From Escherichia coli (GTDB lineage Bacteria > Pseudomonadota > Gammaproteobacteria > Enterobacterales > Enterobacteriaceae), in NCBI RefSeq assembly GCF_024223415.1, contig NZ_CP100500.1: a DNA stretch of 64,000 nucleotides, one strand, 5' to 3'. Shown piece by piece: positions 28,895 through 30,742 of the stretch; the first letter of the stretch is position 1, and each line of letters starts with the position of its first letter. The notes under the pieces were generated by a model. The model made no database searches, was not told the origin of the DNA, and worked only from the letters and a program-made list of their open reading frames with translations. Made by a program: the position numbers and the translations under genes.

Positions 28895-30742
28895 ATGAAA
28901 ATGACTTTGCCGTTTAAACCCCATGTGCTGGCACTAATTTGCAGTGCCGGGCTTTGTGCCGCCTCTGCCGGGCTCTATATAAAAAGCCGCACAGTGGAAG
29001 CGCCCGTGGAACCGCAATCGACACAACTGGCTGTGTCTGACGCTGCCGCGGTTACGCTTCCTGCAACGGTTTCCGCACCTCCCGTAACACCCGCCGTCGT
29101 CAAATCCGCATTCAGCACTGCACAAATAGATCAATGGGTCGCGCCCGTCGCGCTGTATCCCGACGCCCTACTTTCGCAGGTGCTGATGGCATCAACCTAT
29201 CCGACAAACGTTGCTCAAGCAGTGCAATGGTCGCACGATAATCCACTTAAACAAGGCGATGCTGCTATTCAGGCGGTATCTGACCAGCCGTGGGACGCTA
29301 GCGTCAAATCACTGGTGGCCTTTCCACAATTGATGGCGTTGATGGGCGAAAACCCGCAATGGGTGCAAAACCTGGGCGATGCTTTTCTGGCGCAGCCGCA
29401 GGACGTGATGGACTCGGTACAACGATTGCGGCAACTGGCGCAACAAACCGGCTCGCTGAAGTCATCAACCGAACAGAAAGTTATTACCACAACGAAGAAA
29501 ACTGTACCGGTAACACAGACAGTCACGGCTCCCGTCATACCATCCAATACCGTTTCAACTGCCAACCCCGTCATTACAGAGCCTGCAACAACCGTCATTT
29601 CCATTGAGCCCGCCAATCCTGATGTGGTCTATATTCCCAACTACAACCCAACCGTGGTTTACGGGAACTGGGCCAATACTGCGTATCCGCCGGTTTATCT
29701 GCCACCACCAGCCGGAGAACCGTTTGTTGACAGCTTTGTGCGCGGATTCGGCTATAGCATGGGCGTTGCTACCACGTACGCACTATTCAGCAGCATCGAC
29801 TGGGATGACGACGATCATGACCATCATCATGACGATGATTATCATAACCACGATGGCGGTCATCGTGACGGTAATGGCTGGCAACACAACGGCGACAACA
29901 TCAATATCGACGTCAACAATTTCAACCGTATCACCGGTGAGCATCTTACTGATAAGAATATGGCATGGCGGCACAATCCAAACTACCGTAATGGTGTGCC
30001 CTATCATGATCAGGATATGGCAAAGCGGTTTCATCAAACCGATGTCAACGGCGAAATGAGCGCCACGCAGTTACCTGCCCCAACGCGCGACAGCCAGCGC
30101 CAGGCGGCAGCAAGTCAGTTTCAGCAACGAACACACGCCGCACCAGTCATTACACGAGATACCCAACGTCAGGCAGCGGCACAGCGGTTTAATGAAGCTG
30201 AACACTATGGGAGCTATGACGACTTCCGCGACTTCAGCCGTCGTCAACCACTGACCCAGCAACAAAAGGACGCCGCTCGTCAGCGTTATCAGTCGGCCTC
30301 TCCTGAGCAGCGTCAGGCAGTCCGCGAGAAAATGCAGACTAACCCGCAGAACCAGCAGAGAAGAGAGGCGGCGCGCCAGCGTATTCAGTCAGCCTCGCCT
30401 GAGCAGCGCCAGGCAGTCCGCGAGAAAATGCAGACTAACCCACAGATCCAGCAGCGAAGAGACGCAGCGCGTGAGCGTATTCAGTCAGCCTCGCCTGAGC
30501 AGCGCCAGGTGTTTAAGGAAAAAGTACAGCAGCGCCCACTGAACCAACAGCAACGTGATAACGCCCGCCAGCGTGTTCAATCAGCATCACCTGAACAACG
30601 TCAGGTTTTTCGGGAGAAAGTTCAGGAAAGCCGCCCACAACGTCCAAACGACAGTAACCATACTGCCAGGCTGAATAACGATCAACGGTCAGCAGTACGC
30701 GAACGTCTCTCTGAGCGCGGAGCAAGGCGACTGGAAAGGTAA
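28895..30742 (+). CDS. yacH: DUF3300-family secreted protein with Asp/His-rich tract and C-terminal tandem repeats
   Basis: 615 aa, signal peptide MKMTLPFKPHVLALICSAGLCAASA; DWDDDDHDHHHDDDYHNHDGGHRDG tract; four 32 aa repeats QSASPEQRQ(A/V)(V/F)REK(M/V)Q... Confidence 0.8.
   Translation: MKMTLPFKPHVLALICSAGLCAASAGLYIKSRTVEAPVEPQSTQLAVSDAAAVTLPATVSAPPVTPAVVKSAFSTAQIDQWVAPVALYPDALLSQVLMASTYPTNVAQAVQWSHDNPLKQGDAAIQAVSDQPWDASVKSLVAFPQLMALMGENPQWVQNLGDAFLAQPQDVMDSVQRLRQLAQQTGSLKSSTEQKVITTTKKTVPVTQTVTAPVIPSNTVSTANPVITEPATTVISIEPANPDVVYIPNYNPTVVYGNWANTAYPPVYLPPPAGEPFVDSFVRGFGYSMGVATTYALFSSIDWDDDDHDHHHDDDYHNHDGGHRDGNGWQHNGDNINIDVNNFNRITGEHLTDKNMAWRHNPNYRNGVPYHDQDMAKRFHQTDVNGEMSATQLPAPTRDSQRQAAASQFQQRTHAAPVITRDTQRQAAAQRFNEAEHYGSYDDFRDFSRRQPLTQQQKDAARQRYQSASPEQRQAVREKMQTNPQNQQRREAARQRIQSASPEQRQAVREKMQTNPQIQQRRDAARERIQSASPEQRQVFKEKVQQRPLNQQQRDNARQRVQSASPEQRQVFREKVQESRPQRPNDSNHTARLNNDQRSAVRERLSERGARRLER
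30290..30673 (+). repeat. four tandem 96 bp in-frame repeats within yacH
   Basis: units start at 30290, 30386, 30482, 30578 (cagtc(a/g)gcctc(g/t)cctgagcagcg...), first two nearly identical. Confidence 0.8.

Follow-up and report, generated by a model that had tools for sequence, protein, structure and literature searches.

Sequence and composition of the Asp/His-rich tract in YacH

What is the tract rich in aspartate and histidine that lies within the Escherichia coli protein YacH, how did it arise, and could it bind metal ions, as the original prediction suggested from its composition? In the window, i.e., the whole 64-kb stretch of DNA analyzed here, the tract occupies residues 302 to 335 of YacH (positions 29798 to 29899, plus strand). 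The sequence, DWDDDDHDHHHDDDYHNHDGGHRDGNGWQHNGDN, contains 12 Asp (35%) and 8 His (24%) among 34 residues; the predicted composition is thus correct, whereas the end given for the tract, 29900, lies one base beyond the last codon at 29899. The combined count of 20 Asp and His residues is the maximum for any 34-residue window when all six frames of the 64-kb window are translated, and the next-best count in an unrelated region is 12 of 34. With a background frequency of 7.4% for Asp plus His, the binomial probability of such a tract is about 1e-14, and the enrichment far exceeds chance. HxH occurs three times in the tract, HH twice, and DH or HD five times, and its calculated net charge changes from -10.3 at pH 7.5 to -3.4 at pH 5.5.

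At the nucleotide level, the tract is internally repetitive, and the gacgacgat and catcatcat repeats that had been pointed out are present. The core is an imperfect triplet/12-nucleotide repeat at positions 29805 to 29839 (plus strand; gat gac gac gat cat gac cat cat cat gac gat gat), in which Tandem Repeats Finder detected 2.9 copies of a 12-nucleotide unit with 78% matches, and this core is a likely substrate for slippage. The longest pure codon run within the tract is three CAT codons, i.e., (CAT)3.

Overall features of YacH

The open reading frame at positions 28895 to 30742 (plus strand) encodes 615 amino acid residues followed by a stop codon and corresponds to E. coli yacH; the gene name comes from the RefSeq annotation of an E. 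coli region that is 100% identical. The Pfam profile of DUF3300 (PF11737) matches YacH with 262.4 bits (E value = 4.1e-78, gathering cut-off = 25), and residues 75 to 331 are aligned with profile positions 2 to 227 of 227. By this score, which is above the gathering cut-off, and by the presence of the family-invariant residues, YacH is assigned at the sequence level to the DUF3300 family, in agreement with the name first given to the host protein.

The N terminus of YacH contains Lys2 and Lys8, followed by hydrophobic residues 11 to 29 (Kyte-Doolittle value of 2.04), which form the only strongly hydrophobic stretch of the protein on this scale, and an A-S-A↓G site. The AF2 model has a helix at residues 9 to 22. 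From the hydropathy and this helix, the segment of residues 1 to 25 (MKMTLPFKPHVLALICSAGLCAASA, followed by Gly; positions 28895 to 28969, plus strand, with a putative cleavage site) resembles a signal peptide or a signal anchor, which accords with the signal peptide originally predicted. A classical signal sequence is present in the relative P0157, and YacH is probably exported, presumably to the periplasm. A second transmembrane segment at residues 280 to 298, which would place the tract in the cytoplasm, is unlikely: its Kyte-Doolittle hydropathy is 0.78, and the AF2 model has short β-strands there (residues 285 to 287 and 299 to 301), not a helix.

The folded part of the DUF3300 domain on the 5' side of the tract (residues 75 to 301; positions 29117 to 29797, plus strand) is predicted to be a helical domain followed by β-strands, with pLDDT values of >95 for residues 71 to 200 and about 94 for residues 231 to 270. 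The invariant and nearly invariant columns in an alignment of 82 diverse family members, including YacH, are concentrated in residues 75 to 301. In the C-terminal region, which is strongly basic (net charge of +18 for residues 421 to 615), 96-nucleotide tandem repeats at positions 30248 to 30605 (plus strand; period of 96, 3.7 copies in Tandem Repeats Finder) encode four 32-residue Gln/Arg-rich repeats that are predicted to be helical (pLDDT of about 80), each with an SPEQRQ motif (residues 469, 501, 533, and 565). Pairing of the acidic tract with this basic tail found no support: the two charges are uncorrelated (Spearman coefficient of -0.02), and the tail is basic family-wide (median of +16). 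YacH evolves rapidly as a whole, with 45 to 57% identity between genera versus 91 to 99% for the flanking acnB and lpdA.

Position of the tract in the predicted DUF3300 structure

The tract starts right behind Trp303 (positions 29801 to 29803, plus strand), which, like Trp358 and His360, is invariant among the 82 diverse members including YacH. The latter two residues belong to the W358-R-H360 segment (positions 29966 to 29974, plus strand) in the family motif W-x-H-(N/D)-P-x-H-R. On the other side of the tract, residues 336 to 341 (INIDVN; positions 29900 to 29917, plus strand) match the family motif (V/I)(N/D)(I/V)(N/D)(V/I)N, within a region with the family consensus VxINVNxYN, and are predicted to close a hairpin, with an AF2 strand at residues 336 to 339. 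The pLDDT falls below 50 at residues 310 to 313 and 316 to 333, flanked by strands at residues 299 to 301 and 336 to 339, so that the tract is predicted to be a disordered insertion within a folded domain.

Among 81 distant relatives, the median length of the corresponding stretch is 4 residues (interquartile range of 4 to 4), and in the short-loop relative P0157 the model has a confident tight β-hairpin where YacH has the tract. The position between the invariant Trp and the VNINVN strand is the same; the turn has 4 residues in most members, whereas the stretch in the YacH clade has 17 to 38 residues and is predicted to be disordered. The family turn, DW-G/H-x-x-D, often has His and Asp already, typically as GRGD, GHND, or HHGD, and 52 of the 81 relatives have a His no more than 5 residues from this Trp. 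His-rich stretches of other sequence start at the same turn in the relatives P0170, P0205, P0262, P0235, and P0185. The alignments and models together show that the tract is a lineage-specific expansion of a 4-residue β-turn behind the family-invariant Trp. The family is large (9,703 clusters formed at 50% identity gave matches with an E value of ≤1e-3), and most of its members work with the 4-residue turn, a point that we counted against the cation-binding role favored below. Neither whole YacH nor the tract alone gave a sequence match to a solved protein, and the DUF3300 model of YacH gave no PDB match in a fold comparison.

The tract in Enterobacterales orthologs and within E. coli

All Enterobacterales orthologs examined, including that of Rahnella (Yersiniaceae), carry a tract of Asp, His, Gly, Asn, and Tyr, of 19 to 38 residues, in place of the 4-residue turn; the absence or lack of conservation that would have spoken against the original prediction was thus not encountered. 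The orthologs were collected with six search patterns, two of which lie inside the tract; in a check for ascertainment bias, 26 of the 38 loci proved to contain a pattern from elsewhere in the gene region as well. In 31 distinct ortholog tracts (836 residues), Asp accounts for 35%, His for 27%, Gly for 14%, Asn for 10%, and Tyr for 7%, i.e., 94% in total. Glu, Lys, Leu, Ile, Phe, Met, Pro, and Cys are completely absent from these 836 residues, and a single Val represents the aliphatic residues. Order and length vary freely while this composition holds; the order of blocks is nevertheless partly kept, with D4-5, a His run, D3-4, Tyr or Trp, His, and a Gly-rich end (NGDN or GNNN). The number of His residues per tract ranges from 1 to 12; one Buttiauxella ortholog has a single His, and the tracts of Yokenella and of one Enterobacter have 3 each.

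Both Asp codons (174 GAT and 122 GAC) and both His codons (123 CAT and 103 CAC) are well used in the ortholog tracts, which indicates that the repeat is old and its composition maintained. NAY codons make up 80% of the total, so that slippage together with first-position mutation could yield Asp, His, Asn, and Tyr without selection. The inconstant His content, down to a single residue, and this predominance of NAY codons were also counted against the favored role.

The tract, which is present in 5,416 complete genomes, is the most length-variable portion of YacH in E. coli. The alleles, which were extracted from 117 of 120 E. coli proteins and are all in-frame protein variants, range from 29 to 40 residues, most of the differences lying in the runs of His and Asp. 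Single YacH backgrounds that are otherwise identical carry up to five tract alleles, which confirms the prediction that slippage variants would be likely. As in known in-frame codon-repeat polymorphisms, the tract changes by whole codons in short triplet runs, recurrently per background; it differs from them in having no long perfect repeats and no on/off frameshift switch, and in an amino acid composition that is conserved across a bacterial order. In a Salmonella isolate, an 8-bp frameshift deletion has been reported in the same yacH codons (PMC10048834).

Gene neighborhood and upstream region

The copper oxidase gene cueO lies 5.8 kb from yacH, with yacC, speE, speD, yacL, and acnB in between. 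The order acnB-yacH-lpdA is conserved, with yacH as a single gene that runs in the opposite direction to both neighbors in nearly all Enterobacteriaceae loci. A functional link to cueO or acnB through the neighborhood was rejected because five unrelated genes intervene and the strands are opposed; the proximity had from the outset been suspected to be coincidental. The neighbors acnB and lpdA are housekeeping genes, and this lack of a genomic metal link was likewise counted against the favored role.

Upstream of yacH, an alignment of 12 genera has no invariant blocks other than those of a footprint at positions 28788 to 28831 (plus strand; AATCCCAAG...AGTCAAAA...TATACT), which resembles a promoter with a -10-like hexamer at positions 28826 to 28831. 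The footprint resembles a marbox. A CpxR-like site (9/10 match) extends over the -10 hexamer, and 2% of shuffles score as high. Comparison with the consensus strings of Zur, Fur, CusR, NikR, RcnR, CueR, and ZntR gave no box above the shuffled controls upstream of yacH. The best Fur-like candidate, a 13/19 match, was attained by 9% of shuffles and was rejected; its core, GTGATAATCAC, is limited to Escherichia, with a variant form in Salmonella.

These features can be set beside published data on yacH. The gene is regulated by CpxR and repressed by protamine and cecropin A, and its deletion improves survival in protamine, the sole phenotype reported (PMC9600279). Its level rises along with that of marR upon exposure to a cathelicidin peptide (PMC6737244) and falls strongly when rob is mutated (PMC7537768). 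A literature search for a link between yacH and metals found none, the published links being those to CpxR, Rob, and cationic peptides. Neither the arrangement of the locus, nor the upstream boxes, nor the literature ties yacH to metal homeostasis.

Comparison with known His-rich loops

Metal binding by the tract is chemically plausible, judging from its composition and from the analogous loops of ZnuA and PA4063. In PA4063, a periplasmic protein that has no characterized homologs, two His-rich stretches (19 and 24 residues) are disordered, and one of these is flanked by strands on both sides; PA4063 binds zinc with micromolar affinity and becomes partially ordered upon binding (PMC8561739). 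The YacH tract, of similar size (34 residues), also lies between two strands and is predicted to be disordered. However, the folds differ, PA4063 being ferredoxin-like and the DUF3300 model having no PDB match, and the PA4063 gene belongs to a metal-related operon from which it is expressed when zinc is deficient, whereas the published links of yacH are to CpxR and Rob.

According to the passages on ZnuA in the same report, its His-rich loop has micromolar affinity for zinc, and a role as chaperone or sensor is debated (PMC8561739). ZnuA resembles YacH in having a flexible loop of His and acidic residues inserted in a folded protein, the loop being predicted and the export probable in the case of YacH. 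The ZnuA loop is located at the mouth of a high-affinity zinc site, and the protein belongs to a Zur-regulated transporter operon; by contrast, YacH lacks a recognized metal site and a transporter partner, no Zur-like box lies upstream of its gene, and the acidic residues of its tract are Asp only, never Glu. No homology of YacH to ZnuA, PA4063, or any other solved metal-binding protein was found in sequence or in fold. The tract is a real feature and by analogy looks like a weak metal-binding loop.

Possible roles of the tract

We tentatively favor, with a confidence somewhat short of even, the reading that the tract is a disordered, acidic, His-rich loop that grew by slippage from a turn and binds divalent cations weakly. 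In this reading, the 4-residue DUF3300 turn has been expanded in Enterobacterales via triplet-repeat slippage, with remodeling still continuing, into an intrinsically disordered and strongly acidic surface loop on the probably exported YacH. The analysis establishes where the tract lies, its growth from the turn, its predicted disorder, its stable composition, and its variable length; the periplasmic location, the binding of cations, and a role in the cell are inferred. The most likely property of such a loop would be low-affinity, multivalent binding of divalent cations, in which Zn2+, Ni2+, or Cu2+ may be bound by His and Asp, and Ca2+ or Mg2+ by the poly-Asp run at the start of the loop, and its net charge would titrate steeply with pH. 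In that case, the loop might serve the DUF3300 domain as an "antenna" that captures or senses cations, much as the corresponding loops of PA4063 and ZnuA would.

It is conceivable, if doubtful, that the tract is instead a near-neutral filler, in which GAY and CAY triplets are reshaped by slippage in a permissive surface turn and tolerated with no selected function. The whole-codon His and Asp alleles within identical E. coli backgrounds, the variable length and order between genera, the interconversion of Asp, His, Asn, and Tyr by single first-position changes, the drop of His to one residue, the natural Salmonella deletion (PMC10048834), the rapid evolution of YacH, and the sufficiency of a 4-residue turn in most family members are all consistent with this. 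Yet GAY requires only a single third-position change to become GAR, and T and C are well mixed at that position, while Glu and Lys are missing from all 836 residues; the near absence of hydrophobic residues, the retention of the tract by every Enterobacterales ortholog examined, the partly conserved block order, and the different His-rich stretches at the same turn in distant lineages also argue against a filler. Classical contingency loci consist of long perfect repeats, in which length changes shift the reading frame. The variability of the tract in E. coli and the one natural frameshift inside it in Salmonella (PMC10048834) might recall such a phase-variable repeat, which would switch YacH on and off or vary a putative surface epitope at high frequency, but the repeats of yacH are short and imperfect, with (CAT)3 as the longest pure run and only 78% matches in the 12-nucleotide unit, and every extracted E. 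coli allele is in-frame; the tract is not a long, perfect, frame-shifting repeat, and we consider such a switch highly improbable.

We also think it unlikely that the loop senses periplasmic pH or docks polycations (antimicrobial peptides or polyamines, for example) and so modulates YacH or envelope permeability instead of handling metals. The calculated loss of negative charge between pH 7.5 and 5.5, the protamine survival of the yacH deletion, the repression by protamine and cecropin A, and the CpxR regulation (PMC9600279), together with the joint rise with marR in response to a cathelicidin (PMC6737244), the reduction upon mutation of rob (PMC7537768), the marbox-like footprint, and the CpxR-like site over the -10 hexamer, would suit such a role. 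However, the protamine phenotype belongs to the deletion of the whole gene and is not assigned to the tract, and His, which is unnecessary for polycation binding, is usually abundant.

Carrying the favored cation-binding loop further, YacH might be a periplasmic cation buffer or sensor regulated by Cpx/Rob envelope stress, the hypervariable loop of which captures divalent metals or competes with them for cationic host peptides while length alleles tune tolerance or susceptibility; this is speculative, and we give it a low probability. If true, tract-length alleles would tune metal tolerance or antimicrobial peptide susceptibility among E. coli lineages, and a first function would be available for the very large DUF3300 family, the predicted fold of which has no solved relative. 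YacH itself is part of the uncharacterized E. coli genome. The precise location of the tract permits the loop to be swapped for the 4-residue family turn, with cation binding and the protamine phenotype as readouts. A loop without function would be an example of a low-complexity insert that holds its composition in the long term under slippage; if the loop is functional, its natural length polymorphism represents a ready-made allelic series.

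The tract and its host protein

The yacH open reading frame (28895-30742, + strand) encodes a protein of 615 amino acids that matches DUF3300 (Pfam PF11737; E = 4e-78), and nucleotides 29650-30050 of the window are 100% identical to an E. coli region annotated as yacH in RefSeq. Residues 302 to 335 form the tract, which is encoded at 29798-29899 (+ strand) and reads DWDDDDHDHHHDDDYHNHDGGHRDGNGWQHNGDN. Of its 34 residues, 12 are Asp and 8 are His, in agreement with the original prediction; the predicted start is also correct, while the end at 29900 overshoots by one base, the last codon ending at 29899. 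In a six-frame scan of the entire window, the tract is the 34-residue stretch richest in Asp and His (20/34; binomial probability of approximately 1e-14), and the runner-up unrelated stretch has 12 such residues. The scan also picked up a 34-residue stretch in CueO (approximately 21860-21960, − strand; cueO, approximately 21523-23073), which is the known Met/His-rich region of this multicopper oxidase, unrelated to yacH. The internal repetition noticed in the tract DNA was confirmed, as both gacgacgat and catcatcat occur in it, and Tandem Repeats Finder located 2.9 copies of a 12-nt unit at 29805-29839 (+ strand).

At the N terminus of YacH, two Lys residues are accompanied by a hydrophobic stretch (residues 11 to 29; Kyte-Doolittle value of 2.04) and an A-S-A|G site, and no second segment of transmembrane hydrophobicity is present elsewhere in YacH (residues 280 to 298 reach 0.78). 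YacH is therefore likely exported, which would place the tract in the periplasm.

Structural origin of the tract

Among 1.84 billion cluster representatives, 9,703 relatives were found at E ≤ 1e-3, and YacH was aligned with 81 diverse full-length relatives. Only 15 columns are invariant in this 82-member family alignment, three of which (W303, W358, and H360) frame the tract, and the surrounding family consensus is ...G.GFG.G.A...WG..DW-xxxx-V.INVN.YN...W.HNP.HR. In the 81 relatives, the invariant Trp is separated from the VNINVN strand by a median of 4 residues (IQR, 4-4), commonly GRGD, GHND, or HHGD, and 52 of them have a His within 5 residues of this Trp. A stretch of 17 to 38 residues at this position is limited to YacH and the four representatives closest to it in the alignment. 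AlphaFold2 modeled YacH with a mean pLDDT of 72.8; confidence is high in the helical domain (residues 71 to 200, pLDDT > 95) and in most of the strand region flanking the tract, and the pLDDT falls below 50 at residues 310 to 313 and 316 to 333, between the strands at 299-301 and 336-339. In the model of the short-loop relative P0157, a 4-residue turn links the strands at 256-259 and 264-268 with a pLDDT of approximately 90. From the short turn of the relatives, the low pLDDT in YacH, and the P0157 hairpin, the tract is, as modeled, a disordered expansion of a β-hairpin turn and not a separate domain. The DUF3300 fold itself gives no functional lead.

In the strand after the turn (approximately residues 336 to 347 of YacH in the family alignment), hydrophobic residues alternate with Asn/Asp (VNINVNRYNNINVN, DIDIDVNRYN), a pattern that resembles a conserved polar-faced strand or a possible Ca-type site at the base of the loop. 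A Cys is located two residues ahead of the invariant Trp in 26 of the 82 family members. In a Bordetella-labeled relative (locus L038, 3491-6342), a DUF2950 gene (E = 2e-105) directly follows the DUF3300 gene; no such partner adjoins yacH in E. coli.

Conservation and composition among species

One genome per species was scanned for orthologs, which gave 38 loci; 2 of the 6 search patterns fell in the tract, and 26 of the 38 loci also contain a pattern outside it. Lack of the tract in orthologs would have spoken against the original prediction; a tract of 19 to 36 residues was found at the same site in every Enterobacteriaceae ortholog examined, including those of Escherichia, Salmonella, Klebsiella, Raoultella, Enterobacter, Kluyvera, Citrobacter, Atlantibacter, Franconibacter, Yokenella, Dryocola, and Buttiauxella. 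Scandinavium and Rahnella (Yersiniaceae) also possess the tract. The Bordetella-labeled relative has only NWGRGS at this site.

Length and order vary widely among the orthologs, while the composition is steady: the 31 distinct tracts (836 residues) consist of 35% D, 27% H, 14% G, 10.5% N, and 7% Y, with no E, K, L, I, F, M, P, or C. NAY codons account for 80% of their codons, and T and C are well mixed at the third position (GAT/GAC, 174/122; CAT/CAC, 123/103), yet the single-step change of Asp to Glu never appears in the 31 tracts, which argues that the composition is maintained and not merely young. The blocks tend to follow a similar sequence (D4-5, a run of His, D3-4, Y or W, further His, and a Gly-rich end). 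Two points speak against an absolute requirement for His: only 1 His is left in the Buttiauxella agrestis tract and 3 in those of Yokenella and one Enterobacter, and the most constant part is the leading poly-Asp run. Two deposits are oddly labeled, probably from contaminated or misassigned assemblies: in a contig titled "Chryseobacterium sp. 18061" (L035), a yacH ortholog adjoins an acnB gene with 94% identity to that of E. coli, and the entry for a Rahnella-type YacH (P0280) bears the name "Campylobacter jejuni."

Variation within E. coli

The tract region was found in 5,416 of 5,426 complete E. coli genomes, with match lengths differing by multiples of three bases. As anticipated from the repeats, strains differ in tract length: 120 near-identical E. 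coli proteins include 24 alleles of 29 to 40 residues, which differ chiefly in the His run (3 to 6) and the Asp run, and the exact allele of the window is rare. Eight protein backgrounds identical outside the tract each have two to five alleles, and this distribution indicates that the tract has undergone recurrent slippage, which confirms the original prediction of slippage variants. In a Salmonella Typhimurium isolate, an 8-bp deletion in the tract codons (GATCATCA, Asp284fs) truncates YacH (PMC10048834). The yacH gene of E. coli E69 (L006, approximately 5097-5867) has approximately 770 extra bases near nucleotide 1100, downstream of the tract, which are likely an insertion sequence.

Genomic context and regulation

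Between acnB and lpdA, both of which are on the other strand, yacH is a single gene, and this order is retained in almost all Enterobacteriaceae loci. The distance to cueO is 5.8 kb, with yacC, speE, speD, yacL, and acnB in between. The cueO/acnB neighborhood is therefore coincidental, as had been suspected. Between genera, YacH is 45 to 57% identical, compared with 91 to 99% for AcnB and 95 to 100% for LpdA (window 25943-32300 and loci L002-L039); the flanking genes thus diverge far more slowly.

The sole conserved upstream footprint in a 12-genus alignment is located at 28788-28831 (+ strand; AATCCCAAG..AGTCAAAA..TATACT). Its first part is marbox-like and fits the reported Rob dependence, a strong decrease of yacH in a rob mutant (PMC7537768). 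Consensus strings for Zur, Fur, CusR, NikR, RcnR, CueR, and ZntR gave no score above that of shuffled sequence upstream of yacH. A CpxR-like match (9/10, GTAAA-N5-GTATA) overlaps the −10 hexamer, and 2% of shuffles reach this score. yacH is reported to be under CpxR regulation and to be repressed by protamine and cecropin A, and its deletion improves survival of protamine (PMC9600279); a cathelicidin peptide raises yacH along with marR (PMC6737244). No link between yacH and metals was found in the literature searched, and what has been published accords with a role in envelope stress rather than in metals.

Possible functions of the tract

The β-turn expansion that forms the tract is specific to one lineage, predicted to be disordered, and prone to slippage, and the tract composition is kept across Enterobacterales. 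HxH, HH, and DH motifs within poly-Asp are expected from coordination chemistry to bind Zn, Ni, or Cu with micromolar affinity, and the tract would accordingly bind cations; that such binding has a physiological role is our tentative reading. The closest precedents, of similar length, are the His-rich loops of the periplasmic proteins ZnuA and PA4063, which are disordered, bind Zn with micromolar affinity, and are proposed chaperones or sensors (PMC8561739). The YacH tract does not share the genomic context expected of this group, as it has neither a metal operon nor a metal regulator.

The tract may instead be a near-neutral slippage product, which we consider rather doubtful. A switch responding to pH or polycations is unlikely; the calculated tract charge does shift from −10.3 at pH 7.5 to −3.4 at pH 5.5, so the metal and pH readings do not exclude each other. 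That the tract serves as a contingency repeat is highly improbable.

Asp/His-rich flexible loops in periplasmic proteins are already known, and no earlier description or test of the YacH loop was found in the literature searched. The present analysis gives the exact structural origin of the loop, by expansion of the turn that follows the invariant Trp, and adds that the loop is confined to one clade, constrained in composition, and polymorphic within E. coli. The loop would be of greater interest if it explained the protamine phenotype or gave DUF3300 a function.

C-terminal basic repeats

Residues 421 to 615 of YacH have a net charge of +18 and include four 32-residue Gln/Arg-rich helical repeats (...ARQRIQSASPEQRQAVREKMQTNPQ.QQRR), encoded by 3.7 copies of a 96-nt tandem repeat (30248-30605, + strand). 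Pairing of the acidic loop with this tail was considered and dropped, as the tail is basic throughout the family (median, +16), with no correlation between tail charge and loop charge. In some E. coli strains, the repeat is present in a fifth copy (648 amino acids); in others, 45 or 17 residues of the C-terminal part are duplicated. Distant family members have other basic repeats at the same place, e.g., four copies of QNVDRDAARQKA in P0157.
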